DNA of 64,000 nt from a virus, in the IMG/VR virus record IMGVR_UViG_3300047552_002060, positions 1 through 64,000 of that record; one strand, given 5' to 3'. The notes under the pieces were generated by a model. That model made no database searches. It was not told where the DNA came from and saw nothing but the letters and a program-made list of their open reading frames with translations. This document shows positions 1,558 through 55,548 of the stretch, piece after piece. Both the position numbers and the translations under genes were made by a program. Numbering within the stretch: position 1 is the first letter of the stretch; the number at the start of each line of letters is the position of its first letter.

Positions 1558-1677
1558 ATGCGGCGTTTCTTTTCAAGAAATAAATTATTCGAAGTAATGT
1601 TTGTATTGAAGTTAATCAGCTATACAACTTATTACAATCTGCATGACAATGATGGCCAGCGTCTTTTTCCCATGTAA
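1558..1677 (+). CDS. microprotein, LKLIS-motif family
   Basis: MRRFFSRNKLFEVMFVLKLISYTTY... Confidence 0.45.
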   Translation: MRRFFSRNKLFEVMFVLKLISYTTYYNLHDNDGQRLFPM

Positions 1678-1714
1678 TCTCATCCGAATCAATATTCGAT
1701 AAAGGAAAAATCCC

Positions 1715-1909
1715 ATGTTGCCAACTAAATTGACTAATGGAAGAATTCCAGCATTTACGGCGTGCCCATTTAAAGCAACTTGCTCAACCTTGCGCGAAGG
1801 AAAGTGCCATCATCGCGATACGGAGCATCCGGTTGCCTTTAGCTGTGCAACTGCTCGAGGATTTGATTTGATGGAGCGATATGATATGGAGAAGATCCGT
1901 GAAGATTAA
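1715..1909 (+). CDS. small Cys/His-rich hypothetical protein
   Basis: AAGGA SD upstream; CPFxxxC...CHH...C pattern. Confidence 0.6.
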   Translation: MLPTKLTNGRIPAFTACPFKATCSTLREGKCHHRDTEHPVAFSCATARGFDLMERYDMEKIRED

Positions 1910-2366
1910 GGTGATGCGAGGCATTCCTGGCAGTGGTAAGTCTACACTTGTCAGTAAGATGGCGCTTGAAGCATACGAAACAAGAAAAGATGACAAGTAC
2001 GGTATCGCAATCTGTTCGGCCGATAAGTTTTTTATGGGCCCGAATGGATACGATTTTAAGCCTAATAAACTTGGAGAAGCGCACAAAGAATGCCTGCGAG
2101 ACTTTATTTTCGCTGTTCAAAATAAGATGTCTCTTATCTTTGTCGATAATACTAATATCAATATTGAGGATGCTAGTCCGTATATTGCTATTGGTGAAGT
2201 CTATGACTACGAAGTTGAAGTGATCCAGGTCAATGTCTCCGATGTGAAGATCGCTGCGGATCGCAATGTTCACGGAGTGCCTTATAGCAAGATCCTCGAG
2301 ATGTATCATCGACTCACCAATATTCCTATTCCTCATCGTTGGAAGTTCACGTTTGTTAACCATTAA
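1899..2366 (+). CDS. P-loop kinase, AAA_33 / polynucleotide-kinase-like
   Basis: MRGIPGSGKST Walker A, CSAD, VDNTN and RNVHGVP motifs. Confidence 0.85.
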   Translation: MKIKVMRGIPGSGKSTLVSKMALEAYETRKDDKYGIAICSADKFFMGPNGYDFKPNKLGEAHKECLRDFIFAVQNKMSLIFVDNTNINIEDASPYIAIGEVYDYEVEVIQVNVSDVKIAADRNVHGVPYSKILEMYHRLTNIPIPHRWKFTFVNH

Positions 2367-2377
2367 GGGAAGAACAC

Positions 2378-2590
2378 ATGCCTACTATCGTTGTTGACAT
2401 TGGACATTATTTTGCTCGTACGAACCGGTTTCCTCCAAAGCGCGGAATGGTCTCTGTACTTTTTCAAGTAGGAGATCAGCCGGTTCGAGCATCTGGATTT
2501 AATTTCGAAGTAGCCGTAAATGTAGTTAAGAAGACTGCTCGAAAGATGAAAGTAAATACTATTACTTTGCTGGACATTAATCCACTTTAA
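2378..2590 (+). CDS. hypothetical protein
   Basis: ORF with AAGGGA SD. Confidence 0.55.
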   Translation: MPTIVVDIGHYFARTNRFPPKRGMVSVLFQVGDQPVRASGFNFEVAVNVVKKTARKMKVNTITLLDINPL

Positions 2591-2599
2591 TTGGTGAAA

Positions 2600-2707
2600 G
2601 GGCGGGACAGGCTAGTCCAACCATAAAGGAATAGGCGTATGGCACCGAAAGGTGACCGACCGAAACGGAGTGGGTTCGTAGGCTGGGTTCGACTCTCGGG
2701 CCGCCCA
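2600..2707 (+). ncRNA. tRNA-like RNA (acceptor + T-arm, expanded non-canonical centre)
   Basis: GGGCGG/CCGCCC-A closing stem; CTGGG-TTCGACT-CTCGG T-arm; internal CACC-GAAA-GGTG hairpin. Confidence 0.6.
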
Positions 2708-2711
2708 AATC

Positions 2712-2819
2712 ATGACTCAAAATGAAAAGTATGAACTTTTAAACTTCTTTGCGCTTATAAGAAGATTAAGGCTGGTCTCAAAAGACGCATATCAATTATT
2801 CGTTCGTAGGTATTTATAA
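2712..2819 (+). CDS. microprotein, LKLIS-motif family
   Basis: MTQNEKYELLNFFALIRRLRLVSKDAYQLFVRRYL*. Confidence 0.5.
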   Translation: MTQNEKYELLNFFALIRRLRLVSKDAYQLFVRRYL

Positions 2820-2830
2820 AGGCAAAATCG

Positions 2831-3067
2831 ATGAGTAAACTTACACCAGAACAGATAAAGTTTAATCAGAGTCTTTGGCACTGGTATCCATTGGGCCAAC
2901 TGGATGCTATTTGGCATCTTTTAGAAAACCTAAATCACCATACTGATACGAAGTATCATAAAGAAATAGATACTGTACTTTGTGCTCTCGAGAAGTTAGA
3001 TCAAAAGGTACGTCAAGACCGATATCCTTTTAAGAAGAAGCAGAATAAGCAAAAGCGAAAATCATGA
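2831..3067 (+). CDS. hypothetical protein
   Basis: ORF with ATGA overlap to the next gene. Confidence 0.6.
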   Translation: MSKLTPEQIKFNQSLWHWYPLGQLDAIWHLLENLNHHTDTKYHKEIDTVLCALEKLDQKVRQDRYPFKKKQNKQKRKS

Positions 3068-3441
3068 TAAATCAATATCACCTCGAGAAGTGGAACGAAT
3101 TACCAAACAAGACTAAAAAAGAGCTACAAGCCTCTAATCCTAAAAAGGAAGTAACTCAGAAGCAATCTGTCTATGCTAGTAAGTTGACAGATATTGTCAA
3201 AGAAGCTAAGGAATTTGCCAAGCATTGGGGAAAGACCATTCAAGATGTTGAGCTCGAGCATTCATCCTATCAGTATGAGTACTCAGAGAGCTATTCATCT
3301 ATGTTAGAGATGTGTGTTCAAGGTTTAGAGACAGACGATCAATACTATGCGCGGCTGAATGAGTATTATGAAGCGAATAAGCTCCGAGAAGAGTATGACC
3401 GTCGAGAATTTGAGCGTCTCAAGACAAAATTCAGCAAATAA
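3064..3441 (+). CDS. hypothetical protein, paralog of 15393-15740
   Basis: Shared KExxxFA..G...DVxL...ET......RL...E(F/Y)ERLKxK(F/Y) pattern. Confidence 0.7.
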   Translation: MINQYHLEKWNELPNKTKKELQASNPKKEVTQKQSVYASKLTDIVKEAKEFAKHWGKTIQDVELEHSSYQYEYSESYSSMLEMCVQGLETDDQYYARLNEYYEANKLREEYDRREFERLKTKFSK

Positions 3442-3718
3442 GTGGCTAATCTCATTAGCTATATTGTTCAATAGCTTAGATGCTCTTTTTACATTCTTTG
3501 CTATAAAGTTTGGAGCTATAGAGAATAACCCACTCATGCGAGTAATACTTGAGATGGACGTAACATACTTCCTGTATGTAAAGTTAATAGCAGTGAATTT
3601 GTTGATCTTGGGCGTTGGATTCTTCTATCATCGTCACGGGGTGAGTAGGATCGGACTTACAATTGTAGCATGCTCATATGCAATTCTGAATATATATCAC
3701 ATGGTCAATCTCAATTAA
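3359..3718 (+). CDS. small membrane protein, DUF5658-like
   Basis: NSLDALFT...GAIENNPLM motif and three hydrophobic segments; start uncertain. Confidence 0.7.
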   Translation: MSIMKRISSEKSMTVENLSVSRQNSANKWLISLAILFNSLDALFTFFAIKFGAIENNPLMRVILEMDVTYFLYVKLIAVNLLILGVGFFYHRHGVSRIGLTIVACSYAILNIYHMVNLN

Positions 3719-3961
3719 TATGGCGATGAAAATAGCTACAACTCAGCTAGAAAGCGCAATAAATTTCTGTATCTTCTGGTCGATTCTCTTTAGAGGTGGT
3801 AGAGTGTATTTCAACCTTACTCATTTGTTTATTTCTTTTAATAAGTGGAATAGTACAACCAAAAAGGAAGGATAACTACATGTACGTTTTTCTGATGGTA
3901 TTGGCTCTCATCGTTGCTGGTGTTGTTTTTAGTGACCAATCAGGTCACGGGTAAGCTGTTC

Positions 3962-4036
3962 GGCAAAAGGTCTGCTAGCGACCACGGTAAAGGATCAGCC
4001 ATCTGATCTAAAGAGGTTCGAATCCTCACTTTGCCA
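3962..4036 (+). ncRNA. tRNA-like RNA with closed anticodon arm
   Basis: GGCAAA/TTTGCC-A acceptor; GAGG-TTCGAAT-CCTC T-arm; GGTC/GACC D-like stem; GGATCAG-CCAT-CTGATCT arm with 4-nt loop. Confidence 0.6.
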
Positions 4037-4037
4037 T

Positions 4038-4241
4038 ATGAATAAAGTCGACATACACATCTTCCTCAAACCCTGTCCATTCTGTAAACAATCACTCTTT
4101 CCCGTGAATAAGACCCACTGTTCATGGCTCGAGTGTCGTAATGAGCAGTGTGATTTTCTAAGGCGCTCATTAGAAGATATTGAGCCGTTCGATGAGACTT
4201 TTGAACCAATACCATACACAGAAGGATACCATAAGAAATGA
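4038..4241 (+). CDS. small zinc-ribbon protein
   Basis: LKPCPFC...ECRNEQC. Confidence 0.55.
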   Translation: MNKVDIHIFLKPCPFCKQSLFPVNKTHCSWLECRNEQCDFLRRSLEDIEPFDETFEPIPYTEGYHKK

Positions 4242-4361
4242 TGATTGACATATTTACAGGAATGTGGTGCTTGCTTGTAGTCATTGGTATTCTTACTTGG
4301 ATTGGGCGCTCTTTACCCAAGGATTAACTTGGTAGAATGGTTCCATAATTAAGGAATTAAT

Positions 4362-4769: not shown

Positions 4770-4772
4770 CTT

Positions 4773-5329: not shown

Positions 5330-5331
5330 AT

Positions 5332-5438
5332 TGAATGGTAGCTTATGGCGTAGAAGGAATAAGGCATACGCGAGTCGTAAAAGCACCGGTCTCCTTATGC
5401 CCGGGAGAATCTGATGCGGACCTCAGACCATTCGACCA
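5332..5438 (+). ncRNA. tRNA-like RNA with encoded CCA and a 27-nt loop in the anticodon arm
   Basis: TGAATGG/CCATTCG-A-CCA acceptor; TCTGA/TCAGA T-like arm; GGCATA/TATGCC stem. Confidence 0.55.
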
Positions 5439-5441
5439 TAG

Positions 5442-5645
5442 ATGATTAGAAGAATACTTAATAGACTCTTACGTTTATATCGTATAACATCACAACTGCA
5501 TTTAGGAATTTGCTATAGAAATGAACTTCTATATGTGATGGCCCAACTTGAACTGATACCTAAAGTATTAGACATGAAGAACGGTATTTATCTTGGTGTT
5601 GGTATGCCGACGCCTAGGGTCTTAAGAAGGTGGTATTCATGGTAG
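5442..5645 (+). CDS. microprotein, LKLIS-motif family (possibly two motif copies)
   Basis: LYRITSQLHLG and LLYVMAQLELIP. Confidence 0.45.
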   Translation: MIRRILNRLLRLYRITSQLHLGICYRNELLYVMAQLELIPKVLDMKNGIYLGVGMPTPRVLRRWYSW

Positions 5646-5788
5646 ATGAGATAGATCGACTTCATACTGATATCACACGTCGATACAACTTAATCTGTTT
5701 AATGTTAAAATTTAAGTTGATCAAAGAACCTAATTGGTTTGATATTGAATACGCTCTAAAAAAGAGTCTTATGCCTAAATGGAAATGA
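5639..5788 (+). CDS. microprotein, LKLIS-motif family
   Basis: ...RYNLICLMLKFKLIKEPNW... Confidence 0.45.
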   Translation: MVDEIDRLHTDITRRYNLICLMLKFKLIKEPNWFDIEYALKKSLMPKWK

Positions 5789-5819: not shown

Positions 5820-5905
5820 GCTCTTGTCGCATAGTTGGTCGAGTGCACCAGTTTTGTAAACTGGATCCCTAAAGGACATCGTGAGTTCGAATCTCACCGA
5901 GAGCT
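5820..5905 (+). tRNA. tRNA-Thr(UGU) with extended variable arm
   Basis: GCTCTTG/CGAGAGC acceptor, CCAGT-TTTGTAA-ACTGG anticodon arm, 16-nt variable region, GTGAG-TTCGAAT-CTCAC T-arm. Confidence 0.88.
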
Positions 5906-6052
5906 ATGTCGCGACACTATATTCCTCCTGTAACTATGGCAGAGCGCTTCAATAAATTGTGGTTCTTCATTTCTTTCTTGAACCAATTGAGCCTCATCTC
6001 TCGTCTAACGCGAACTAAAGCACATACAAAAATAGTTCATAACTCAACATGA
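5906..6052 (+). CDS. microprotein, LKLIS-motif family
   Basis: ...LWFFISFLNQLSLISRLT... Confidence 0.45.
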   Translation: MSRHYIPPVTMAERFNKLWFFISFLNQLSLISRLTRTKAHTKIVHNST

Positions 6053-10428: not shown

Positions 10429-10797
10429 ATGCTTATAACCGCACCAGAGTCTACGCTTACTTATATCGTCTATGGCTATGTCGGTATAGGCATCTTATTG
10501 ATGATAGCGCTGTTGACCGATGAGGAGATGACTAAAGACTGGCTAGATGCTGGCTTTGCTCTAATAGTTGGACCTATCTGGGCTTTTATCCTCGTACTTC
10601 TCTTGACGATAAAGATCATCGAGAATGGAAAAGAGAAGGTCTCTCTCTTTAAGCAAAGAAAACGAGATAAGAAGAGAACGGCCAACTCAAAACAATTATC
10701 ACTCATTCGTCGAATGTACTTATTAAACTTAATCAGCAAAGATACATTTGTAGAATGTAAGAATATAACCGTGAGAAAAAATGATTCTGGTCACTAA
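10429..10797 (+). CDS. membrane protein with C-terminal LKLIS-family motif
   Basis: Two TM segments then LIRRMYLLNLISKDTF. Confidence 0.6.
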   Translation: MLITAPESTLTYIVYGYVGIGILLMIALLTDEEMTKDWLDAGFALIVGPIWAFILVLLLTIKIIENGKEKVSLFKQRKRDKKRTANSKQLSLIRRMYLLNLISKDTFVECKNITVRKNDSGH

Positions 10798-20012: not shown

Positions 20013-20323
20013 ACAATGAAATCTAGAGGTGGCCTTTGGTCTAAAAATGGGCAATTCGCTGACGATGTCTTCGATCTTTTTGTCAACTTATATGCCAAGT
20101 TGTTTAACTATAAGTATTCCACGCGTTATAATTATAACCTCCTTGGCCAAAAAACTCAAGAAGAAGATCGAAGACTTGTGCGGCCTAACCTCATTGGGTT
20201 GGGAGGATAGGCAAGATAAGGCCAACCAGATCCTTTCCTCTAATGAGTGGAAGCAGCGACTTTGCAACGAATTGATAGGCTTATCATTTCGAGAGCTCGA
20301 GAAGGTTCTAATCGGTATCGCCA

Positions 20324-20626
20324 ATGAGCGTCAGAAAAGAGTTGAAAACGATCAAACTGAAGACGGTGAGACCGCAAGGAAGCGTGGGCATTCTGGCAAA
20401 TCCTTGCGGAGAGATCCCATTGGGACCGCCACAGACAAACCGCCTTCGCGACGTACTCTCGCAGAAATCCTGGCGCAAGTATACGCACCAAGACAGGATG
20501 CGAACCATATTTCGCAATTCGAGCGGTCAACTCTACGAGCAAGACCTTCTGTTTGTGAAGAGATACTTCCGAACTCTGCTGATGGAGATGATTGCACCGA
20601 ATAGTGAATGGGCCAAATGGTTATAA
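20324..20626 (+). CDS. small protein carrying RNR-like motifs
   Basis: KTVRPQGSVGILA directly followed by NPCGEIPL; overlaps ORF 20029-20604. Confidence 0.5.
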   Translation: MSVRKELKTIKLKTVRPQGSVGILANPCGEIPLGPPQTNRLRDVLSQKSWRKYTHQDRMRTIFRNSSGQLYEQDLLFVKRYFRTLLMEMIAPNSEWAKWL

Positions 20627-20724
20627 CCGTTGATGTCTGGTGGAAACTTCGTCCTATGTTTACGCTCATATGGAAGCTTGACTTGATAAGTCTTAACACT
20701 TACAATCAATTCATCTGGACTTAA
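20617..20724 (+). CDS. microprotein, LKLIS-motif family
   Basis: MVITVDVWWKLRPMFTLIWKLDLISLNTYNQFIWT*. Confidence 0.5.
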   Translation: MVITVDVWWKLRPMFTLIWKLDLISLNTYNQFIWT

Positions 20725-20829
20725 ATGTACCATCGACAACGATTCTTTACAACTTTATTCTTACTAAAGTTGATCAGTGAAGGAACTCTAATACGTTTTC
20801 TTTTCAAGCACAAATATCTTGAAGGGTAA
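20725..20829 (+). CDS. microprotein, LKLIS-motif family
   Basis: MYHRQRFFTTLFLLKLISEGTLIRFLFKHKYLEG*. Confidence 0.5.
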   Translation: MYHRQRFFTTLFLLKLISEGTLIRFLFKHKYLEG

Positions 20830-28090: not shown

Positions 28091-28345
28091 ATGCCGATAC
28101 GTATATTCTTTTTAAGCCAATTGAATAATCGAGTCCAACGTGGAGAATTGTCTCAAGGATGGCATTCGTGTTGGGCATTACTTAAATTCTTAACCTCTCT
28201 TAAACAGATTAAGTTGATAACTCCATCAACTTGGGATTCTGCTTATAGAGATGTTTGTGCTGTTTGGCAGGATTCAAAGCGAGCATTTAAATATGAAACA
28301 AAACAAAAAGAAATCTTACACACCACCTTCGAAACCTCTTCGTGA
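28091..28345 (+). CDS. small protein, LKLIS-motif family
   Basis: LLKFLTSLKQIKLITPSTW. Confidence 0.45.
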   Translation: MPIRIFFLSQLNNRVQRGELSQGWHSCWALLKFLTSLKQIKLITPSTWDSAYRDVCAVWQDSKRAFKYETKQKEILHTTFETSS

Positions 28346-28633: not shown

Positions 28634-29443
28634 CTATACTCCTGCTCCTGGAACACCTGTCAGCATCGGTTTCGGTACGACGACTTCCTCGTCAATCTTA
28701 ACATTCGGGTCACTCTCTTCTTTAACATGTTTATTTAGTTCAAGCTTAGGAACATTGTGACGATTAACTCTGCTGTACAGCTTGTGAACTAAGACTTCCA
28801 TATCAGCATGTGCTGGAGTTTTCTTCAGCTGCGACGATCGCAGTTTACGAAGGTTTCCTCGCTTCTTAGGTTCAACGACTTTATCTGCCAAGCCCAACTT
28901 AATAGTTTCTTCTGCAGAGAGATATAAGTCGCGCTGACACACATCTTCCCAAAAGCTCTTAGGCATCCTAGAATTGGCTGCATACACGTCATAGAGCATA
29001 TCCTGAAGACGCTTTGCCTCTTCCATCGCGATCTTCGCATCTGTATGTGTACCTTCGAAATATTCAGTGCCGTCATGAATCATAACAGTCGTGTTTGGAT
29101 AAAGATAGCGTTCGTCACAGATGGCCATAATCCATGTAGCACTACTCTGAACAATCCCACCGCCGAAAAACTTGACTTGACATGGACAAGCTAAGATCTC
29201 ATCACATAGCCGTAGCATCGAGTAGGGATCACCGCCGGCACTATTCATATATAGTTCTATGGGTTTTCCAGGGGCTTCATTCACAAGTCGATGAAGAGCT
29301 CTCACTGCGAGTTCGATCGAACGTTGAGTCACTTCTCCACACTCTTCATCGGCTTGACCTGTGTAGTCTCCGAAGTAGATACGACGGTTCTTGGTATCTA
29401 TACCGTAATCTAGAAAGTCACCTAATTCCGTTTTAAGGGCCAT
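28634..29443 (-). CDS. clpP: ClpP-like serine protease 1
   Basis: NSAGG, QSSA (Ser), MIHDG (His), RDLYLSAEE (Asp), GLADKV. Confidence 0.88.
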   Translation of the reverse strand: MALKTELGDFLDYGIDTKNRRIYFGDYTGQADEECGEVTQRSIELAVRALHRLVNEAPGKPIELYMNSAGGDPYSMLRLCDEILACPCQVKFFGGGIVQSSATWIMAICDERYLYPNTTVMIHDGTEYFEGTHTDAKIAMEEAKRLQDMLYDVYAANSRMPKSFWEDVCQRDLYLSAEETIKLGLADKVVEPKKRGNLRKLRSSQLKKTPAHADMEVLVHKLYSRVNRHNVPKLELNKHVKEESDPNVKIDEEVVVPKPMLTGVPGAGV

Positions 29444-33486: not shown

Positions 33487-33825
33487 TTACGACGGATCCG
33501 TTTTTGCTACTAAAATTCCATCAATGAATGTTAACAATCCAGTTGTTCCAGACGGCGTCAATTTTGCCAATGTAACGGTGGTTGATAGACCTGTAGGTAA
33601 AGCTCTCTTAATATTTAAAGCTACCATCATGGCAGCTATTAAAGACTTGAAGGGGTCCTTAACGCCTTGTTTTACCGCTTGTACCGCAGGAGTACTATAC
33701 AAGGGCATAGGATCAAGTACTGGCTGAGATATCTGGTTTTCAACACCAAATGCGAATGCTGCTTCTAGATCGCCCTCTAGAGCCACAATCCCCGTCTCCT
33801 GATCTGCTGTAATTATCAATTTCAT
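33487..33825 (-). CDS. stand-alone copy of the C-terminal domain of 29768-31456
   Basis: FKSLIAAMMVALNI...LAKLTPSGTTGLLTFIDGILV. Confidence 0.7.
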   Translation of the reverse strand: MKLIITADQETGIVALEGDLEAAFAFGVENQISQPVLDPMPLYSTPAVQAVKQGVKDPFKSLIAAMMVALNIKRALPTGLSTTVTLAKLTPSGTTGLLTFIDGILVAKTDPS

Positions 33826-35637: not shown

Positions 35638-35714
35638 TTGACTTGGTTCTATCTTAAGAATAGAGAGAGCAGCTAAAGAGCTGCTAAGTTCTGGTTCAAG
35701 TCCAGAGAGTCGAG
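35638..35714 (+). ncRNA. tRNA-like RNA with closed anticodon arm
   Basis: TTGACTT/GAGTCGA acceptor; TTCTAT/ATAGAG D-like stem; AGCAGCT-AAAG-AGCTGCT arm; TCTGG-TTCAAGT-CCAGA T-arm. Confidence 0.65.
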
Positions 35715-36014
35715 TCAGTTCAATCACAGACGAATGGGTGACACAGAGTTGCACCCTACGGTGGGTCTTAATGGAGCATATATGCAAGGTTTGTTGTATG
35801 GCTGGATAGCTCTAATCGTACTAGCGGCGCTTTTCGCTTCTGTAGGATTAGGAGTATTGATTGCTATGTTGTTCTATCGTAAGAAGTAAAAAAAACTGGA
35901 ATGTTCCAAGAGTTGGCGTCCAGTACTGGGTTGATCTACGACGCGGGCAGATCGACAAATGGAAAAGAGAGGCTATAAAGGCCGAACGAGATCGTTCGAA
36001 TCGATTACCAGTTT

Positions 36015-36146
36015 ATGTATGGAGAGAAAATAGTCATCTATTTCTTTAGAACTTTAAGATTATTAAAGTTGTCTGAGTACAGAGTTGAAGGTCTGGTGCC
36101 CACGCGGTTAATTCTGCAGTACATGCTAGAAAAAAGAGGAAGATAA
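36015..36146 (+). CDS. microprotein, LKLIS-motif family
   Basis: MYGEKIVIYFFRTLRLLKLSEY...; stop overlaps the next ATG. Confidence 0.5.
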   Translation: MYGEKIVIYFFRTLRLLKLSEYRVEGLVPTRLILQYMLEKRGR

Positions 36147-38564: not shown

Positions 38565-39210
38565 ACTTGATGATATAATTGAGTTTATGATTAAGCCAGA
38601 GACCGACATATTAGAAAAGTTTGAACAACTACTTAAATTTGCTAAAGAAGTTGCTCAAACTGAAGAGCTGGAAGAACTAGTCAAGAGTTGTCCACGCTGT
38701 GGTAAGGCCTCTGCCAATAAGTCTAATCCTTCTGGTCGGTGTTCTAGTTGCCTCAAAAAGTTAGCAGCCAATAAAAAGAAGCCAGGTCACTATCTCCATG
38801 AGCATAAAGTGGCAGACGATGCACTCCGTAGACAGAAGGGGAAAAACGGTACCGCTTCTAAGAAGTCTTCTGGTCTTGGGTCTCGTAAAGAAATCATCAA
38901 TAAAGTGCATTCTGCTGAAAAACGCACTGGACAAGTTTTGTCTCCAGACCGGAAGGACAACTCAAAAGGTTACTCCTCATCTAATGTCCGTATGGTCCCA
39001 CCGCATCTCAATAGAGGTCGACACCATGTTGACGGAAAGAAGTTAGCAGCCTGGAAAAAGAAACTCAAGAAGAACGACATCTCTGATGAAGAATTGTATA
39101 CTTACGTCTTAGCGAAAGCTACAGAGAATCAAACCGAATTAGTATCTGAACTTGAAAAGATGTCTCCCGCTGATTTGATCGCATACTTTTTCGATTCAGA
39201 TGTAGAATAA
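38557..39210 (+). CDS. hypothetical basic protein, possibly degenerate HNH-like
   Basis: EELVKS, CxxC pairs, SPDRKDNSKGY..SNV....N. Confidence 0.65.
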   Translation: MNKLDDIIEFMIKPETDILEKFEQLLKFAKEVAQTEELEELVKSCPRCGKASANKSNPSGRCSSCLKKLAANKKKPGHYLHEHKVADDALRRQKGKNGTASKKSSGLGSRKEIINKVHSAEKRTGQVLSPDRKDNSKGYSSSNVRMVPPHLNRGRHHVDGKKLAAWKKKLKKNDISDEELYTYVLAKATENQTELVSELEKMSPADLIAYFFDSDVE

Positions 39211-46133: not shown

Positions 46134-46348
46134 TCAAACTTGCGGATATGATTAAACTTACAGATATAAGGTCTTTGCTGCCTCTCTCCCACAAAGAAAA
46201 ATGGGAGAGAGTTCATGGTGCAATTTGTGGGTTATTTACTGTAGGTGCCCATCTATTTCCAGAAATAAAGGCATGGGACACATACTTGTCTGATCTCAGT
46301 GTTTTTACGCAGAGGTGGACCCCATATGCCCGTATCAAACAAAGGTGA
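46130..46348 (+). CDS. small protein, tandem paralog B
   Basis: KAWDTYLSDLSVFTQRW. Confidence 0.55.
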   Translation: MIKLADMIKLTDIRSLLPLSHKEKWERVHGAICGLFTVGAHLFPEIKAWDTYLSDLSVFTQRWTPYARIKQR

Positions 46349-46490
46349 AACACCAGAGCTTAAAGCTGCATGGAGATTCTTTAAAGTGGTTAATGACCTC
46401 AAGTTAGCTAATATCTTTGGCATGCTTTGGAATGTTTATCCTGTTTTAACTTTTATGGAACGTCGCAATCATGCCAGACTGCAGACTTAG
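46326..46490 (+). CDS. microprotein, LKLIS-motif family
   Basis: AWRFFKVVNDLKLAN. Confidence 0.5.
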   Translation: MPVSNKGETPELKAAWRFFKVVNDLKLANIFGMLWNVYPVLTFMERRNHARLQT

Positions 46491-46706: not shown

Positions 46707-46862
46707 TTGATAAATAGGGAAAGAGCCTGTCTCTTAATCACTCGGCGCTTAATAATAGTCCTATCTAGATTAGACTTGGTTTTATATGCCACTGCGGTCA
46801 ATTTAATCTTGAGCACAATCCCACTACAAAAGTTCAGTGAATCGTGGGTAAAGAAAAATTGA
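46707..46862 (+). CDS. microprotein, LKLIS-motif family
   Basis: AGGAG SD + TTG start; RRLIIVLSRLDLVL. Confidence 0.45.
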   Translation: MINRERACLLITRRLIIVLSRLDLVLYATAVNLILSTIPLQKFSESWVKKN

Positions 46863-47032
46863 TGAAAGGTTTAACAGCGATAGACATCGATGTTGCTGTT
46901 TTTAATTTTTTCAATATGATTTACTTGTTAAAACTTGCACCTAAGAGTTTAGCGACGAAAACAGATGTTCGCGTAGCAACAATAACAATGCGCTCGATAA
47001 ATCTATTATTCCTTATGAAGGGGTTCTCTTGA
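46862..47032 (+). CDS. microprotein, LKLIS-motif family
   Basis: VFNFFNMIYLLKLAP. Confidence 0.5.
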   Translation: MKGLTAIDIDVAVFNFFNMIYLLKLAPKSLATKTDVRVATITMRSINLLFLMKGFS

Positions 47033-47676
47033 AAATCTTAGTCGATATGGATGGAATCATAGTAGATACGCTGCCAACCTGGCTTCAGCGTATCTACTGG
47101 TGGACTGGTGTCAAAGTAAACCCAGACGATATTACTCAATGGGACCTCATCAAAGATCCAGCTTTGAGTAAGTTACAGCCGAGTCAGATATTTGACATCC
47201 TAGATGAGAAGCATTTTACGCTCCAGTTGCCAGAGATGCCTGAGGCCACTCGATTTCTCGAAAAGTTACATGATGCCGGCCATGAGATTAACGTTGTTAC
47301 TGCTAGGTTTGGCATGAACTGTATGCCCGAGACGATCTCCTGGCTACAAGAGATGATGCCGTGGTTCAATGCTAAAAAGAAGACGTTCTTCTGCTACGAC
47401 AAGCATCGAATCACAGGAGACATCCTTATCGATGACAAGGCAGAGAATCTCGTCCGGTATAATCAAGAATATCCCAACGCCAAATTGATCACGATAGACT
47501 ATCCCTTTAATAAGGATACTCCCGCAGGAACCTTTCGGGCTCGTAAGGACGGATGCGAATGGGAGCAGATCGAATTTTATATCAGAAAGAAGTTGGCGAA
47601 GCCAACCTGTTCTTGGTGTGGTGATTCAGAAGAAATGCATGGTGGAATGGGACACTCTCACCACTTTGAGGAATAA
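47029..47676 (+). CDS. 5'(3')-deoxyribonucleotidase (HAD, NT5C-like)
   Basis: ILVDMDG, VTAR, DILIDD, PFN. Confidence 0.88.
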   Translation: MKILVDMDGIIVDTLPTWLQRIYWWTGVKVNPDDITQWDLIKDPALSKLQPSQIFDILDEKHFTLQLPEMPEATRFLEKLHDAGHEINVVTARFGMNCMPETISWLQEMMPWFNAKKKTFFCYDKHRITGDILIDDKAENLVRYNQEYPNAKLITIDYPFNKDTPAGTFRARKDGCEWEQIEFYIRKKLAKPTCSWCGDSEEMHGGMGHSHHFEE

Positions 47677-49815: not shown

Positions 49816-50712
49816 ATGCTTAAGCATTTAGCATCTAGTCTCATTGCTCGCATTAATTCTAGTGGACGAATCAGAAAGATTGAGACGGAGCACAACGCAA
49901 CTCTTAAGGAAGTTGAGCGACTACGTTGGGAGAATCGACAACTCCATAAGAACGCTTCTGAATACATGGAAGCGCGAAAAGAGGTCGAGCGGCTTACAAC
50001 CCTCGTGTCAGTACTTGAGCGAGACTGCGAAGATCTCACATGTCATGCCTGCTCAAAGTGTTGTGATGCTGCCCTTGCTGATATCGAGCGTTGGAAACGC
50101 GCTGCCGTAAGCCAGAACCGTCAGTGGTCGGTGAAATGCGTGGAGGCTACAGAATTGCGTGCCGAAGTCGAGCGACTTCAGACCGAACGCCATATGCTTG
50201 AGTTACAATTTGAGTCAGCGAAAAAAGCGACTGAGGCATGGGCGGACAAATTCGAACTTAGCGAACGAGAGCGGCTTACAGCGGAGCGCGACGAAGCCTT
50301 AGCCATGGTCGAGCGTCTGCGCGAGATTCTCAAGAACGAGATGCACGAGAGTTCGTTGGCACAGGAGCGCGACGAAGCCCGTGCCGAGGTCGAGCGGCTC
50401 ACGAAGGAGGTTGGCAGAGTCATGAACGAGAAGGCGATTCAACTTGGCGCCTTGGAGGCGGAAATTACCGGCGCCCATGCCGAGATAGAGGCGCTGCTTG
50501 ACGCAGTGAAAGCTTCGCATGAGACTGGGTGCTGGGGTCCGGCTGAAGACGCCTACGCTGCGTCGGGGCGTCCAGCCCTACGGCATCGGAGCGAGGTCGA
50601 GCGACTCTGCAATATCGTGAAGAACGGAGTGATTGGACCCATCAAGACTTCAGGTGAAGGAAAGACGTTAAACAATCTGTCTACTGATAGTATTATCAAA
50701 GTTGGCCAATAG
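49816..50712 (+). CDS. coiled-coil protein with repeated (A)EVERL units
   Basis: At least six (E)VERL copies; ERDEA twice; GC-rich. Confidence 0.7.
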   Translation: MLKHLASSLIARINSSGRIRKIETEHNATLKEVERLRWENRQLHKNASEYMEARKEVERLTTLVSVLERDCEDLTCHACSKCCDAALADIERWKRAAVSQNRQWSVKCVEATELRAEVERLQTERHMLELQFESAKKATEAWADKFELSERERLTAERDEALAMVERLREILKNEMHESSLAQERDEARAEVERLTKEVGRVMNEKAIQLGALEAEITGAHAEIEALLDAVKASHETGCWGPAEDAYAASGRPALRHRSEVERLCNIVKNGVIGPIKTSGEGKTLNNLSTDSIIKVGQ

Positions 50713-50735
50713 AAGTTAATGATCTTGAACATCGT

Positions 50736-50939
50736 ATGGATTGCAAAGATAATTCTCTAGTCCCTGGTCTCAAGAAAGCGATTAAAATTGTCGACAACAG
50801 ATTAGCTACCGCCAAAGCCTTAGACTGTGGCGAAGAGTTTACAGGTGCTATGGAACAGATTCAAGTCTTCTTGAAAGCCGAACTTTGGCGTCAAGAAAAC
50901 CCTGAAGAAGCTAAGAAATCATCGACTGTCCTAGATTAG
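50736..50939 (+). CDS. hypothetical protein
   Basis: ORF. Confidence 0.55.
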   Translation: MDCKDNSLVPGLKKAIKIVDNRLATAKALDCGEEFTGAMEQIQVFLKAELWRQENPEEAKKSSTVLD

Positions 50940-50944
50940 CAGTT

Positions 50945-51017
50945 GGGACCGTAGCTCAGTTGGTAGAGCAGGAAACTTTTAATTTCAAGGTCGTGGGTTC
51001 AAGTCCCACCGGTCCCA
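50945..51017 (+). tRNA. tRNA-Lys(UUU)
   Basis: GGGACCG/CGGTCCC-A acceptor; CTTTTAA loop; G:A mismatch at the top of the anticodon stem. Confidence 0.93.
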
Positions 51018-51121
51018 TTATGTTTAAAATATCTTCCACTACGCGTTCGTCGAACTCGCGGTCTAAATGATTTCACTATGACTGTTTTTCGTTTCTTTAC
51101 CTTTCTAAATTGGCTTGGACT

Positions 51122-51373
51122 ATGCTCAAAAAGACACCTAATGTAGAGTATGATATCAACAAGCGTTGGGAACGCGGAACGACCCACCATCCTAAGTCTA
51201 TCGCCTTGTTGAAGCGTGTTGATGAGCTTGACTGGGAACTACTTAAGGGACATTTCGACTTCAAGACTGGCGGCGATGGGGATAATGGTGAGACGTTGAT
51301 GTATCTGCTGGATATTTACTTCGAGGAGCAAGATGCCACCAAAGAAAAAGAAAGCAAGAAGCGAAAAACCTGA
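51122..51373 (+). CDS. hypothetical phage protein
   Basis: FKTGGDGDNGETLMYLLD. Confidence 0.7.
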   Translation: MLKKTPNVEYDINKRWERGTTHHPKSIALLKRVDELDWELLKGHFDFKTGGDGDNGETLMYLLDIYFEEQDATKEKESKKRKT

Positions 51374-51524: not shown

Positions 51525-51526
51525 AT

Positions 51527-51730: not shown

Positions 51731-52204
51731 ATGACTAGTCTGATAACATATCTGATCTGCCTCATTCCTTACGATACTAAAGTCTCTACATGGCCACTCA
51801 GTGGCCTAAATAGGGAATTGATGGGTATCGCTCGCTTAGAGTCATATTATGGAACTTACACTGACCATGAACCTCATATTCGTGGTCCATTCCATACAGC
51901 TTTTGGGTCATTAGGATTAAAGCCGATTACGGCCCATGATCAGTATATGAAGTCACCTAAGCTACAGAAGCAATTTCCTGGTCTACAAGATGAACAAGTA
52001 TTTCTGCGAGAATTCTGGCGTAATCGAACGCTCTACACCCAGTGTGCGAACTTCCATTGGTGGTATTTGCGACACGTAACTCCAACACTCGAGCGAGCAG
52101 TCTACTCTTGGCGCTGGGGACTTACAGCAAGTAATCAAGCCGCGGATGAGCAGATTGCCGCAGATACTTATACAATTCAATATATAGAATTGGATAAGCA
52201 CTGA
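51731..52204 (+). CDS. putative lytic transglycosylase (SLT/lysozyme-like fold)
   Basis: IARLES (catalytic Glu-like) and AFGSLGLKPITA resemble SLT motifs I/II. Confidence 0.5.
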   Translation: MTSLITYLICLIPYDTKVSTWPLSGLNRELMGIARLESYYGTYTDHEPHIRGPFHTAFGSLGLKPITAHDQYMKSPKLQKQFPGLQDEQVFLREFWRNRTLYTQCANFHWWYLRHVTPTLERAVYSWRWGLTASNQAADEQIAADTYTIQYIELDKH

Positions 52205-52422
52205 TGCACATTACGGACATACATAAAGCTTGTTGGCGATTTTGGTATACTATAGGTGAATTAAAGTTGGGCAACATGGCTGACTTTATTTATCGCGTTG
52301 ATATTAGAGGCCGTCATCGCCTTCACCATCCTAATTATGATTATGTAATAAACTTCGATATACGACATTATAGGACAACTATTCACTATGCCCCTCTTAA
52401 ATCGTATTCCAGTATTAGATAA
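52204..52422 (+). CDS. small protein, LKLIS-motif family
   Basis: CWRFWYTIGELKLGN. Confidence 0.45.
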   Translation: MHITDIHKACWRFWYTIGELKLGNMADFIYRVDIRGRHRLHHPNYDYVINFDIRHYRTTIHYAPLKSYSSIR

Positions 52423-52930
52423 AGGTTTCGTAGCGACCTACGATACCTCCTGTAACAGCGACAAGTTGAATGAGCTTGCTGTCGAGTTCTATAAACGACT
52501 CGATGGCAAGTTTTTATGTGAAAATAGTACACTGACGGTGATGATGAAATGCCCACTGTTCATTCAACTTAATCTTTCGCAGTTCAACTTACGAATCACC
52601 AACCTGCCGAATGTCGGCTCTGATGAACTCGAGAGCTACTATCCCAATGTCGGAGAGATCGGCTCCAGTGATCTACGTGTCTGTCAGGATATCTCGGACG
52701 ACATGAAACGCACATCCATTGCCCTACTGATGAATCACAAAGCTTATCAAGCAGATGGATGTAATCGCTTCATGTCTCAAATTCTAACGCCTATCAACAC
52801 TTATACGACCATTCTCGTTCATGGAATGTATAATGATTGGAGCAGGTTTGTATCGCAGGGAAATGCACCAGCTCCGATTGCTGCATATATGCAAGCAGTG
52901 GACCAATTAATTAAAGCAGAGTGGCGATGA
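52388..52930 (+). CDS. degenerate ThyX-fold protein
   Basis: IPVLDKGFV, KCPLFI, Y...G.......P.NTYT, W..F; lacks the RHR/SxRY signature. Confidence 0.6.
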   Translation: MPLLNRIPVLDKGFVATYDTSCNSDKLNELAVEFYKRLDGKFLCENSTLTVMMKCPLFIQLNLSQFNLRITNLPNVGSDELESYYPNVGEIGSSDLRVCQDISDDMKRTSIALLMNHKAYQADGCNRFMSQILTPINTYTTILVHGMYNDWSRFVSQGNAPAPIAAYMQAVDQLIKAEWR

Positions 52931-53172
52931 AAAAAAATAAAGACCCAAAAGAACCAGAACTATCAGAAGTATATGAGACCGAGATTGAGTTCACGTGTCC
53001 AGTCCGTGGGCTAGTCAAGCAGAAAGTTAAAGTGAAGAGATATAAGAGCGTATCTAATCAGCCAGTCGAGGATATCTTGCCTAGCAAAAACATAGCAGAC
53101 AAGCTCGATCAAAAATATTCAGGCTTAATACTCGAGGATGAGAGTGTGGACTTATTAGACGGAGAGGGCTAA
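52927..53172 (+). CDS. hypothetical protein
   Basis: EFTCPVRGLVKQKVKVKRY. Confidence 0.65.
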   Translation: MKKNKDPKEPELSEVYETEIEFTCPVRGLVKQKVKVKRYKSVSNQPVEDILPSKNIADKLDQKYSGLILEDESVDLLDGEG

Positions 53173-53906
53173 TGAAGTACGACATTACGCAAGATGACAA
53201 AGATATAATGGAGTTCGACTTTAAACATGATCGCACTCTCAAGCACCTCCGCAACTTATCATTTTACAAGTTCTCGATTGGTGATGTTTTGATCCGCGAA
53301 GAAAAATACCGCACAGATGGAAAGGATCAGTGGAGAGTGAAGGTAGCCGATTGCGGATTACCCAATAAATATCTCTACGCATATGAAAATTCTCTTGGAG
53401 TTGGATACATCAGAAGATTGAGCATAAATGGAAGAAAGTTTGTCGACAAGGCGACCTGTGTGACACAGTTTGACCCCGATCAAACACGCTTTGTCCTAGA
53501 TCCTGAGTATGCCGACCACATGCTTCTAGCGTCAGAGAATGATGACTTCGATGCTAAGTCGCGCTACGACGATATTAAGAAGAAGAAAGAGAAGGTCAAT
53601 CGCCAAAACAAAAAGATGCGTACCACTTTTGTGGATGAGGCAGCAGTCAAGAATTGGATGAAGACTTTGAAGAGGGGAGATCAGTTTTGGTTTAGTCATT
53701 CTCTAAGTCGAATCTCCAAGAATCCATATGTCATCGACGCAATTCACCTTGATATCCGGCGGCAGAGTCTATGGAATAACACCGAGACCATATCCTACGT
53801 GTCGGTAACAGGCGGGAATTATAATACGCAGCTGTATCCATCATCGTTTATAACAGGCTATCTCTTTCTCTCGAGACCTACTTTTGCCGATGAGGTCATA
53901 TCTTGA
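53172..53906 (+). CDS. hypothetical protein, paralog of 48406-49128
   Basis: Shared blocks listed for 48406-49128. Confidence 0.75.
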   Translation: MKYDITQDDKDIMEFDFKHDRTLKHLRNLSFYKFSIGDVLIREEKYRTDGKDQWRVKVADCGLPNKYLYAYENSLGVGYIRRLSINGRKFVDKATCVTQFDPDQTRFVLDPEYADHMLLASENDDFDAKSRYDDIKKKKEKVNRQNKKMRTTFVDEAAVKNWMKTLKRGDQFWFSHSLSRISKNPYVIDAIHLDIRRQSLWNNTETISYVSVTGGNYNTQLYPSSFITGYLFLSRPTFADEVIS

Positions 53907-54364
53907 CAAGGCTACCTACAAAAAAGCTTATTCACTTAAACAATCGTGCGATTGCTATCGCAGAACAGTCGCATGATATTCATACTAAAGTAGCAGCACT
54001 ATTGGTTAATCCACAAACTCTAGCAGTGTCATCTGATGGCTTCAATGGCTTTGTTAGAGAAGCTCCAGATACGATTCTTCCTACTGAGAGACCAGAAAAG
54101 TATGATTACCTTATTCACGCAGAAGAAAATCTGCTCTGTAATGCTGTAAGGAATGGGGTGAAGACCGATGGCTGTTTTATCTATGTGAGTATTTCGCCCT
54201 GTACAAAATGCCTGCGACTGATGTGGCAAGCAGGAATTAGGGAGTTCTACTTTAAAGAGAAGTATAGAGATTTCGATAAATGTACTTCTATGCTTGACCT
54301 ACAAGTTGATTTAAGCTTAGAAGATGGCTTCTATCATATGCTAGTAAGTAGTCGCAAACCATGA
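53903..54364 (+). CDS. dCMP deaminase
   Basis: S.D..TKV, GFNG, HAEEN, SPCTKC, QAGI. Confidence 0.88.
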   Translation: MTRLPTKKLIHLNNRAIAIAEQSHDIHTKVAALLVNPQTLAVSSDGFNGFVREAPDTILPTERPEKYDYLIHAEENLLCNAVRNGVKTDGCFIYVSISPCTKCLRLMWQAGIREFYFKEKYRDFDKCTSMLDLQVDLSLEDGFYHMLVSSRKP

Positions 54365-54690
54365 GACCTCTTAGAGAACGACAGATAGTCAACGGAAGAA
54401 GGTCCTCTAAGGAAGAACGAGAAAGAGCCGAGCAATCGAGGCTCTTTCTAGAAGAGAAATACCGCTGTGCTCGTAAGATCTTCTGGGTATTATGGCGTCT
54501 TATGCTATATAGCCATTCAGAGAATGTGCTATTCGGACCAACTTATTTAGCCGACCGACTCACTCAAAAACACACATTTGGAACTTATGACCAATATAGG
54601 CCAGAGAGAGGCTCGAGGATGCTTGACCCGAATAGCGTATGTGATTGTCCGACTTGGTTTAGCAAATCCATGGAAGTGGACAGCCATTGA
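54361..54690 (+). CDS. hypothetical protein with LKLIS-like motif
   Basis: RKIFWVLWRLMLYS. Confidence 0.5.
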   Translation: MRPLRERQIVNGRRSSKEERERAEQSRLFLEEKYRCARKIFWVLWRLMLYSHSENVLFGPTYLADRLTQKHTFGTYDQYRPERGSRMLDPNSVCDCPTWFSKSMEVDSH

Positions 54691-54903
54691 TAGATATGAA
54701 AGACAGAGTATTTTTTTGGAAAGACATCTTAAGGTGCTTCGAAATGTCACAAGACCTCACTACTAGACGCCAGATGCTCTTAAGAGCAAGTGCCGGACTC
54801 ATCAATGTATTCGCGCAGATCCTGTTGTCAGTAGGAGTAGCGTCGTGGTCCGCCGTGAGTGGATATTGGAGCTTATGCGATTTTGTAGATAGAAATGACA
54901 AAT

Positions 54904-55356
54904 ATGTCACTAAGAATATTATTAATAGGAAGTAATCCGTCGACCGCGTCATCAACAGACGAGGCGTTCTCTGCAGATACGGTCTCGGGAAGAGTGGTTA
55001 GATCGTGGATTCAGGGGATAGATGGCACGATCTTATTCGATAATATCGTATCCCAGATCACGAAAAACAACCGCCCTCTGCATCCAAATGAAATAATGTG
55101 TGCATCGGAATCCCTCTTAGAGAGAATCAATAGGATTGATCCTGATCGTTTGATCGCTCTCGGAAAGAGCGCTGCTTGGGCTCTCAATGAGCTAAAGCTT
55201 AATTTTTTAGAGATGCCACATCCGTCGGGACTCAACAGAAAGTTGAATGATAAGGCTTATGTCACTGAGAAACTTGAGTTACTTAGAGCGTATTGCAAAT
55301 CAGAGAAGATACCACTTCTTCATCACCGTACTAGCACAATTAGAACTTATAAGTGA
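54904..55356 (+). CDS. uracil-DNA-glycosylase superfamily protein
   Basis: LLIGSNPS, IALGKSA, MPHPSGLNR. Confidence 0.75.
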   Translation: MSLRILLIGSNPSTASSTDEAFSADTVSGRVVRSWIQGIDGTILFDNIVSQITKNNRPLHPNEIMCASESLLERINRIDPDRLIALGKSAAWALNELKLNFLEMPHPSGLNRKLNDKAYVTEKLELLRAYCKSEKIPLLHHRTSTIRTYK

Positions 55357-55407
55357 CCCTACATATTTGTCAGTCACAGACAATTTCTTCAAATTTATGT
55401 TCAAAAA

Positions 55408-55548
55408 ATGACCAGCTTATATGACCGGCGTTACTTAGCTATATCTAGCTTCTATAGATGCTTGGCCCTATTGAAGTTAGGCGATAACAATACTCTCTGG
55501 GGGAGTTATAGTCGTTTCTATGGCAAGTATCGACAAATACTCTACTGA
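55408..55548 (+). CDS. microprotein, LKLIS-motif family
   Basis: ISSFYRCLALLKLGD. Confidence 0.45.
   Translation: MTSLYDRRYLAISSFYRCLALLKLGDNNTLWGSYSRFYGKYRQILY

Follow-up and report, generated by a model that had tools for sequence, protein, structure and literature searches.

Lambda Kil and T7 Gp0.4 are helical microproteins of phages, each present as a single copy, and inhibit proteins of the host. To our knowledge, the small early host-takeover genes of SPO1 are not paralogs with one common motif. The canonical helix-turn-helix (for example, of the excisionase or MerR type) has a hydrophobic helix end, a Gly/Lys turn in which Ser comes after a hydrophobic residue, an x-x-Thr sequence, and a second helix. 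Octotricopeptide repeat (OPR) units, as outlined in PMC8635915, are antiparallel helix pairs of 38–40 residues that bind RNA.

The window analysed here, a stretch of 64,000 nucleotides, covered the initial 64 kb of a freshwater phage contig that was 84.8 kb long. This large phage contained about 20 copies of a previously undescribed family of tiny, basic, predicted two-helix microproteins with one common motif. The family genes were located in a + strand block with nucleotide-metabolism, ligase, and tRNA genes, and the ClpP gene (28634–29443) was on the − strand. The major capsid protein was about 30% identical to those of SPO1-like Bacillus phages, and a relative, G002, had direct terminal repeats. 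When compared with SPO1-like host-takeover blocks, the family likewise belonged to a large phage with such repeats and consisted of many very small lineage-specific genes tightly packed on one strand, whereas its copies were scattered among metabolic and tRNA genes and not in the terminal repeat. Going by the general descriptions of lambda Kil and T7 Gp0.4, the proteins shared with them a length of about 45–55 residues, predicted helicity, presumed early production, and a basic or hydrophobic character, but those are single genes without a common motif, whereas 10–27 paralogs per genome were present here. The order of helix end, turn, Ser, x-x-Thr, and second helix was the same as in the helix-turn-helix. 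However, the turn was one residue longer, the model had two helices instead of three, and none of 20 members matched Pfam helix-turn-helix families at E values up to 1 or 10.

The initial annotation had listed 17 short ORFs sharing the motif, all on the + strand. All 17 motifs were found at their positions on that strand, and an 18th, unlisted copy was present in ORF 55247–55411 (Table 1). The ORFs had been described as mostly shorter than 60 residues and often absent from the ORF list, and indeed 12 of the 17 were below this length and nine were missing from the 60-aa ORF list. Each window member occupied a gap between genes on the coding strand, as had been described, and translational coupling to neighbours was borne out by junctions of −4, −1, 0, or 3 nt, which 10 or more of the 18 ORFs had.

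Table 1. Family members in the window, with scores of the relatives-only profile and ranks in the leave-one-out test
Positions	Strand	Assignment	Length	Motif	Relatives-only HMM (bits)	Leave-one-out rank	Context and other evidence
1513..1677	+	member	54 aa from ATG 1513 or 39 aa from ATG 1558	1585	23.2 (2nd of 3242)	2	no clear SD; start choice uncertain
2712..2819	+	member	35 aa	2745	15.0	3	after tRNA-like 3' end; no SD; next ORF begins 11 nt downstream
5442..5645	+	weakly supported member	67 aa	5526	5.4	3 (10.7 bits)	7-nt overlap with next member
5639..5788	+	member	49 aa	5690	10.3	740	SD-like AAGAAGGTGG upstream
5906..6052	+	member	48 aa	5966	14.3	3	ATG is first base past tRNA-Thr (5820–5905); stop overlaps next ORF by 4 nt
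10429..10797	+	longer member	122 aa	10702	10.7		hydrophobic N-terminal part, basic linker, motif near C-terminus; residues 10–76 match phrog_4955 and phrog_14512 (membrane-protein PHROGs); ortholog of same layout in G002, BLAST E 4.8e-7
20608..20724	+	member	38 aa (35 aa from ATG 20617)	20656	17.1	2	starts 3 nt past 191-aa ORF 20029–20604
20725..20829	+	member	34 aa	20743	15.4	1 (20.7 bits)	directly after stop of member 20608..20724
28091..28345	+	weakly supported member	84 aa	28187	outside top 40	114	108 nt past tRNA-Asn; high score only in iterated HMM containing it
36015..36146	+	probable member	43 aa	36042	8.7	3	after tRNA-like element; stop overlaps start of 200-aa ORF by 1 nt; upstream fold z −2.5
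46326..46490	+	sub-group member	54 aa	46377	outside top 40		BLAST to G002 member 33572–33748 over motif, 78.6% over 14 aa, E 2e-4; to paralog 52204, E 3e-5
46707..46862	+	member	51 aa from TTG 46707	46749	10.8		TAGGAG SD-like upstream; 1-nt overlap with next member
46862..47032	+	member	56 aa	46907	12.7	3	stop overlaps 215-aa ORF 47029–47676 by 4 nt
51078..51146	+	very short member or remnant	22 aa	51093	11.0	4	59 nt past tRNA-Lys; overlaps ORF 51110–51373
52204..52422	+	sub-group member	72 aa	52240	5.3	81	start overlaps stop of 157-aa ORF 51731–52204 by 1 nt; BLAST to 46326, E 3e-5
54361..54690	+	longer member	109 aa	54478	10.8	255	4-nt overlaps with dCMP deaminase gene 53903–54364 and next ORF
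55247..55411	+	member, not in the initial list	54 aa	55319	22.6	1 (21.1 bits)	protein used for folding
55408..55548	+	probable member	46 aa	55450	7.1	28	4-nt overlap with 55247..55411; last gene of + strand block; BLAST to G001 member 20353–20469, E 1.9e-4

A loose regular expression of the bare motif was equally common on both strands (47 matches in + frames and 50 in − frames), and therefore the 11-residue pattern by itself proves nothing. Profiles, in contrast, separated the set. When a 24-residue HMM made from the 18 sites was run on the 3242 six-frame ORFs of the contig, the members scored 19.5–28.8 bits; the best other ORFs, both on the − strand and outside the window, scored 15.4 and 13.1 bits, and the rest at most 9.1 bits. 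With each member left out in turn, 10 of the 18 were recovered at rank 4 or better and five failed (motifs 55450, 52240, 28187, 54478, and 5690), although the last two of these exceeded 10 bits with an HMM built only from members of two related phages. The top 13 of the 3242 ORFs with this relatives-only HMM, at 10.3–28.4 bits, were all family members, 11 of them among the 17 listed, and the best score on reversed sequence was 7.8. Fifteen Markov-1 random contigs yielded seven ORFs of at least 10 bits in total (maximum 12.3), or about 0.47 expected per contig, compared with 14 in the real contig. Five of the 17 (5442, 52204, 55408, 28091, and 46326) were missed by the relatives-only HMM and 36015 was marginal. 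The missed ORFs were partly rescued by BLAST, which linked 46326 to a G002 member, 52204 to 46326, and 55408 to a G001 member. Support was weak for two to five of the ORFs in the initial list.

Six rounds of iterated profile search gave 56–58 matches across three genomes (21 in G000, 10 in G001, and 25–27 in G002) and none in the reversed database, with some drift of the profile, which took in a probably spurious ORF (29182–29433) antisense to the ClpP gene. In a search of 1.84 billion proteins, the family was confined to a small phage clade, and the G002 protein 33572–33748 (P0009) gave a significant family match. No relative of the family was found in Pfam, PHROG, or PDB; 10 members gave no PHROG match, and the PHROG matches of 10429 lay on its residues 10–76. 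What is treated as demonstrated is that the genes are protein-coding and form one family, together with its copy number and its limitation to this clade.

The initial annotation had proposed a family that is expanded and conserved as protein, and the codons agreed with this. Motif position 10 was Leu in 51 of 52 members, with all six codons in use (20 TTR and 31 CTN), which confirmed the synonymous variation noted initially. Ser at position 12 was encoded by both codon families (AGY in 11 members, TCN in 18), and a Thr residue three residues past the motif, absent from the initial pattern, was present in 29 of 52. In an ortholog pair, the copy at 75.5 kb and its G002 counterpart, pS was 0.74 and pN was 0.19 over 42 codons. 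G002 also contained seven tandem ORFs of 42–55 aa with overlapping or adjacent stop and start signals, followed by a hairpin. The mean codon-usage score of the family was 0.02, compared with 0.36 for long genes and −0.11 to −0.25 for control ORFs inside genes; the odd amino-acid composition may account for part of this low score. The SD-like sequence typical of the long genes of this phage was missing in many members. While ligase identity among these genomes was 78–83%, only a few family members could be paired with recognisable orthologs; identity in these pairs was 67% at most, and the positions differed. The family has probably grown via tandem duplication, and its turnover between related phages is rapid. 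The motif almost certainly marks a real multigene protein family limited to a narrow phage lineage.

The family had a median length of 49 aa, a median pI of 9.8, a median net charge of +4, and a median hydropathy near zero, and its aromatic content was 14%, compared with 8.2% in long ORFs. One AlphaFold2 run on the 55247–55411 protein with a 48-row alignment predicted helices at residues 12–31 and 37–52 (mean pLDDT 83.6; pTM 0.59, amphipathic helices being easily over-predicted). The motif, the most confident region (pLDDT 93–96), was placed so that it covered the two final turns of helix 1, a turn of five residues, and the cap with which helix 2 begins. Its three parts would be a stripe of hydrophobic residues closing helix 1 (F, F/L, x, x, L, x, x, L), then the tight turn K/G-L-I-S, and then an x-x-T cap opening helix 2. 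The 51078 copy lacks helix 2, because its ORF stops six residues past the motif. A single hairpin of two helices per protein is the likely fold on this model. The motif had been described as one docking helix with variable flanks. The residues around it did vary, but in the model it is not a single helix, and since it spans the helix 1 end, the turn, and the helix 2 cap, it is read as mainly a constant fold core, which is fairly probable. Helix 1 was hydrophobic on more than one face, which leaves room for a binding or oligomerisation surface.

Chance could in principle produce a loose hydrophobic pattern from about 64,000 codons per strand, together with spurious short ORFs, and the strand-neutral regular expression, the leave-one-out failures, and codon-usage scores just slightly above the non-coding controls are in line with this. 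It may explain 5442 and 28091, but it is contradicted for a core set of about 13 members, and as a general account it is extremely improbable in view of the all-family top ranks of the relatives-only profile, the excess over random contigs, the empty reversed database, the tandem arrays and orthologs of other genomes, and the placement of all window members in coding-strand gaps. There is just as little room for a conserved signal in DNA or RNA, be it a promoter, a binding site, or a piece of some repeated tRNA-linked cassette, with the ORFs as incidental. The core in the window was often TT(R) AAG TT(R) ATC, five of six Phe-Phe pairs were TTCTTT, many ORFs had no SD sequence, and several came after tRNA or tRNA-like elements. 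This reading is already contradicted by the information, which lay in codon positions 1 and 2 with T at position 2, by the six Leu codons and two unlinked Ser codon families of the 52 members, and by the in-frame Thr and aromatic residues conserved downstream. G002 copies retained the peptide while their DNA differed, and the next gene start was anywhere between overlapping and about 190 nt away. The initial annotation had offered a DNA site, with TTRAAGTTRATC as its example, as a possible source of the conservation; this was rejected on the codon variation and the differing DNA of the G002 copies.

As possible roles, the initial annotation had put forward adaptors or decoys for the ClpP/AAA machinery, membrane targeting, and anti-defence. 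The two remaining alternatives accept the proteins and differ in what they would do. Each microprotein may be a stand-alone OPR/FASTK-like RNA-binding hairpin, one unit of a helical-repeat binder, and such units, especially those of tandem genes, would assemble non-covalently on tRNAs, tRNA-like transcripts, or mRNAs. The sole match outside the clade among the 1.84 billion proteins was P0008, which has 38-aa repeats and Pfam DUF1601 and FAST_1, and whose repeat core aligned with the family motif; in both, the helix A end plus the turn carried a similar pattern (a hydrophobic residue, Trp, Leu, Lys/Gly, and Leu). Against the P0008 repeats, hhalign scored 18.2 for the family (probability 34%) and 22.7 for a Trp-rich sub-group (probability 60%), compared with 3.8–9.7 for reversed or column-shuffled controls; the P-value is not independent, because P0008 was chosen as the best match. 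The unit size of about 38–40 aa and the predicted antiparallel helix pairing agree with the RNA-binding units outlined in PMC8635915, the proteins were basic and aromatic-rich, and several genes lay immediately 3' of tRNA genes. However, the likeness was short (13–22 columns) and statistically weak per unit, each P0008 repeat adding only about 0–4 bits, and the total was significant only because 13 near-identical repeats sum up. No other helical-repeat protein was matched in that search, and a scan of 20 members at E values up to 1 or 10 gave no match to DUF1601, to FAST_1, or to Pfam repeats of any kind. OPR proteins, in the same outline, are long single-chain arrays of algae, apicomplexans, and a few bacteria, and one unit per phage gene differs from every OPR protein described. 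This reading is unlikely. Membrane-active or membrane-targeting peptides, with the hydrophobic helix 1 inserted into or lying on the inner membrane, are less likely again. Helix 1 contained 8–12 mostly hydrophobic or aromatic residues, the positive net charge fits anionic membrane binding, and 10429 and its G002 ortholog place the domain behind a membrane-protein-like N-terminus. Nevertheless, the hydrophobic run was too short for a membrane span, positions 10 and 12 were mostly charged, and the median hydropathy was close to zero; in the 10429 type, the linker ahead of the domain was strongly basic, and this points to a soluble module in the cytoplasm.

The explanation preferred here, a family of helical hairpins acting as small binding modules, is moderately likely as a whole. 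The proteins would be cytoplasmic and would probably form dimers or oligomers through the additional hydrophobic face on helix 1. The macromolecule, of host or phage, that is bound and blocked or redirected would differ from paralog to paralog. A host-directed binder is a tentative assignment with somewhat less than an even chance, and such binding may be part of host takeover or counter-defence.

The microproteins carrying the FFxxLxxLKL(I)S-type motif were shown to form a real family, which was confined to its clade, was present in high copy and had undergone tandem duplication and fast divergence. The peptides of all 17 ORFs cited in the initial annotation were reproduced by translation, and all of them lay on the plus strand. 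An extra copy was found at ORF 55247–55411. The family ORFs had been described as short, often absent from the ORF track and translationally coupled to their neighbours, and this description held: 12 of the 17 were under 60 aa, nine were missing from the 60-aa ORF list, and at least 10 of the 18 ORFs showed a 1- or 4-nt stop/start overlap or a gap of 0–3 nt on at least one side. The coupled partners included the dCMP deaminase gene, a 200-aa ORF and a 215-aa ORF, and the junctions are typical of packed phage operons. The GGAG-type sequence of the long genes of this phage was absent before many family copies, and the mean codon-usage score of the family was 0.02, compared with 0.36 for long genes and −0.11 and −0.25 for control ORFs. 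The missing GGAG-type sequence and the in-between score speak against confident gene status, and as a coding test the codon-usage score was ambiguous.

The sites had originally been picked by eye, from translations, and therefore the three-base periodicity of conservation and the leave-one-out recovery were partly built in. The plus-strand restriction did not extend to a loose regular expression of the motif, which matched 47 times in plus frames and 50 times in minus frames; the bare motif was unusable as a test because of this lack of strand enrichment. Weight was put on four tests that were independent of the choice of sites, one of which, the presence of the family in related phages, is described further below. 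When a 24-aa profile of the 18 sites was compared with the 3242 six-frame ORFs of the contig, members scored at least 19.5 bits, whereas two ORFs outside the window scored 15.4 and 13.1 bits and the remaining non-members 9.1 bits or less; no minus-strand ORF within the window exceeded 9.1 bits. A second profile was built from 33 rows of two related phages that carry the family, G001 and G002, with none from this contig. With this relatives-only profile, 13 family ORFs occupied the top ranks of the 3242 ORFs at 10.3–28.4 bits, and the best score among reversed sequences was 7.8. Across fifteen random contigs matched in dinucleotide composition, seven ORFs altogether reached 10 bits, compared with 14 in the real contig. 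In addition, a threonine three positions past the motif was conserved in 29 of the 52 anchored members, often with Tyr, Phe or Arg after it, and gave independent support since this residue is outside the pattern originally described. An iterated profile over three genomes (12,281 ORFs) converged on 56–58 ORFs, and none of the six rounds gave a match in the reversed database.

Five of the 17 ORFs (5442, 28091, 46326, 52204 and 55408) were missed by the relatives-only profile; three of these were linked by BLAST to members elsewhere, and the membership of 5442 and 28091 is doubtful. Two further ORFs were treated as false: 29182–29433, found by the iterated profile, was antisense in the ClpP gene, and 38765–39043 (10.1 bits) lay in another frame inside the endonuclease VII gene. 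The match at 72.5 kb had no start codon ahead of the motif.

Conservation of a DNA site, rather than of a peptide, which the initial annotation had named as a refuting alternative, was ruled out by the codon evidence. The near-invariant leucine (51 of 52 members) was spelled by all six codons, 20 TTR and 31 CTN; synonymous variation of the leucine codons had been noted in the initial annotation in favour of protein-level conservation. The motif serine was encoded by 11 AGY and 18 TCN codons, two sets that no single substitution joins, and in G002 the peptide was kept while the DNA differed throughout. Substitution rates were in agreement: one clear ortholog group, at 75.5 kb just outside the window, was also present in G001, G002 and a fourth contig, and its pair from this contig and G002 (67% amino acid identity) had a pS of 0.74 and a pN of 0.19, close to the 0.74 and 0.15 of the ligase. 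Among the differences listed for variant contigs, which covered only conserved genes, none was inside the micro-ORFs.

When relatives were scanned, two phages found through their ligase, with 83% and 78% identity in this protein, carried the motif 5 and 15 times, respectively. The motif was in none of three more distant phages, and neither profile matched the more distant relatives G003–G006. The stretch directly upstream of the ligase was unconserved in the 83% and 78% relatives and held no family match there, so that the copies at 20.6–20.8 kb were without positional orthologs. In G002 (172.6 kb), seven motif ORFs of 42–55 aa were arranged head to tail on one strand as separate ORFs in different frames, with overlapping or adjoining stop and start codons at the junctions. 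At the end of this array was a GC-rich hairpin, a C/T-rich then G/A-rich inverted repeat, which looks like a terminator. A HMMER pass over 1.84 billion representative proteins gave 10 matches, nine of which were microproteins of G001, G002 or near copies, and a search for homologous proteins added only one further ortholog.

The source contig, from a freshwater metagenome, contained 84,774 bases and was 49% complete by CheckV; the window was its first 64 kb. Its genes included ribonucleotide reductase, DNA ligase, RNA ligase, AAA ATPases, dCMP deaminase and endonuclease VII. The major capsid protein was ~30% identical to the counterparts of SPO1-like Bacillus phages, and megablast of 8 kb against 50,697 phage records gave no match. 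Six tRNA genes were called by ARAGORN, five of which were confirmed by Rfam. Features of the tRNA neighbourhood and the genome setting are listed in the table.

Features near the family ORFs and in the surrounding genome. L015, L031, L035 and L037 are stretches of phage genomes; L037 position + 64000 = contig position, and L015 = G002 55000–63000.
Feature	Location	Coordinates	Strand	Remark
tRNA-Thr and ATG of family ORF 5906	window	5820–5908	+	0 nt between
tRNA-Ser, then start of Trp-rich family ortholog	three genomes	L037 11548–11627 (contig 75548–75627); L035 19840–19918; L031 1923–2007	− (contig)	start after 1, 1 and 2 nt
tRNA-Lys, then ATG of 16-codon non-family ORF	window	50944–51070		ATG after 1 nt
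tRNA-like element	window	2620–2711		acceptor and T-arm sequence; just upstream of 2712
tRNA-like element	window	5331–5441		acceptor and T-arm sequence; just upstream of 5442
tRNA-like element	window	35925–36014		acceptor and T-arm sequence; just upstream of 36015
tRNA with four-base anticodon (aaag)	window	35642–35716		ARAGORN; unreported by Rfam tRNA model at E up to 0.1
RNA hairpin	window	20520–20610		−27.6 kcal/mol, z −3.0; covers end of 191-aa ORF 20029–20604, just before 20608
Raised contig depth	window	50634–51295		around tRNA-Lys; many loose ends at 50943–50983
ClpP-type protease	window	28634–29443	−	within plus-strand block; Pfam CLP_protease, E 3.9e-26; PHROGs also ties to head maturation proteases
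496-aa ORF	L037	12026–13516	−	adjoins major capsid gene; PHROG matches to HNH endonuclease and resolvase-like endonuclease
GC-rich hairpin at end of array	L015	below 60727	−

The start codons located 0–2 nt past tRNA 3′ ends suggest that leaderless mRNAs may arise from tRNA processing. The three tRNA-like elements were called by neither ARAGORN nor Rfam; the fold of the element upstream of 36015 had a z of −2.5, and those of the other two were no better than shuffles. The rise in contig depth around tRNA-Lys was five- to twenty-fold in both metagenome runs and most likely represents tRNA-Lys genes of other organisms mapping onto the contig.

The family proteins were small and basic, with medians of 49 aa, a pI of 9.8 and a net charge of +4; the pI was above 9 in 45 of 55. 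Aromatic residues made up 14% of the family, compared with 8.2% of long ORFs. The fold is predicted to be a two-helix hairpin. In an AlphaFold2 model of one member, the extra copy (ORF 55247–55408 as modelled), calculated with a 48-row family alignment, helices at residues 12–31 and 37–52 formed a 41-residue hairpin, with a mean pLDDT of 83.6 and values of 93–96 across the motif. The motif (residues 25–36) is predicted to comprise the final seven residues of helix 1 together with a five-residue turn, and Asp-Pro-Thr would open helix 2. Since the motif spans the end of helix 1 and the turn in this model, the conserved residues are best interpreted as hairpin core and turn. Motif positions 6, 7 and 9 were often also Trp, Tyr, Val or Leu. 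The hydrophobic surface of helix 1 exceeds the need of a lone hairpin, which suggests pairing with another copy or with a partner. In 10429 and its G002 ortholog, the domain was preceded by an N-terminus resembling membrane proteins and by a very basic linker.

When ten members were compared with PHROGs, nothing was found below an E of 0.1, with the exception of membrane-protein PHROGs for the N-terminus of 10429; Pfam gave nothing below an E of 0.07, and a second set of ten members was likewise without a Pfam match worth naming at an E of up to 10. The best E value of a PDB sequence profile search was 0.25, and Foldseek against the PDB gave no match at an E of 0.001 or better, with only generic helical matches at an E of 3 or more. 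A canonical helix-turn-helix DNA-binding domain was rejected, with none of 20 members matching any Pfam family of this type at an E of up to 1 or 10, and with two helices in the AlphaFold2 model compared with the three-helix core of such domains. No description of the family was found in Pfam, PHROGs, the PDB or the literature searches, in which an unnamed family is hardly findable by words. Large phages are known to have expanded families of small accessory genes; the present family has a new sequence and is unusual in its small size and high copy number.

The microproteins would be small cytoplasmic binding modules, made alongside early or middle metabolic genes, in which surfaces that vary around a constant core may be presented to targets in the host or phage. 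The main rival is a role in RNA binding, which is hinted at indirectly by the basic, aromatic composition and by the tRNA neighbourhood of the family ORFs. The tenth match of the 1.84-billion-protein search, P0008, bears on this role. This 1256-aa protein contained 38-aa repeats with Pfam DUF1601 and FAST_1, and its repeat core aligned with the family motif. According to the description in PMC8635915, octotricopeptide repeats (OPRs) bind organellar RNA, and each is made up of two antiparallel helices in 38–40 aa. The predicted 41-residue hairpin fits an OPR/FASTK-like unit of about 38–40 aa with an antiparallel helix pair; however, several tandem units are present per polypeptide in those proteins, whereas all 55 family members had one unit per ORF. 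In hhalign comparisons with the P0008 repeats, the family scored 18.2 (probability 34%) and its Trp-rich sub-group 22.7 (probability 60%), over a match of only 13–22 columns, and reversed and shuffled controls scored 3.8–9.7. P0008 gave only 0–4 bits per repeat, no other helical-repeat protein was found in the search, and none of 20 members matched DUF1601, FAST_1 or other repeats in Pfam at an E of up to 1 or 10. The relation to OPRs was taken as one of general likeness and not of family membership. It is quite improbable that the family is a split alpha-solenoid, in which free single OPR-like RNA-binding units would assemble noncovalently, in mixed combinations, on mRNAs, tRNAs or tRNA-like RNAs, with some units made from leaderless mRNAs after excision of the upstream tRNA. 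If the RNA-binding reading were true, the family would provide the first example of a helical-repeat unit that stands alone, and tRNA processing would be linked to translation of the next gene.

A single undescribed family accounts for roughly twenty genes in 85 kb, the majority of which would escape routine gene callers on account of their shortness; the coding content missed in large environmental phages can be substantial, as this family shows. A constant hairpin core with variable surfaces, tandem duplication and quick replacement among close relatives is the pattern expected of proteins in a host arms race. The family is therefore a compact set of candidates in which new inhibitors of host defences or other host processes might be sought.
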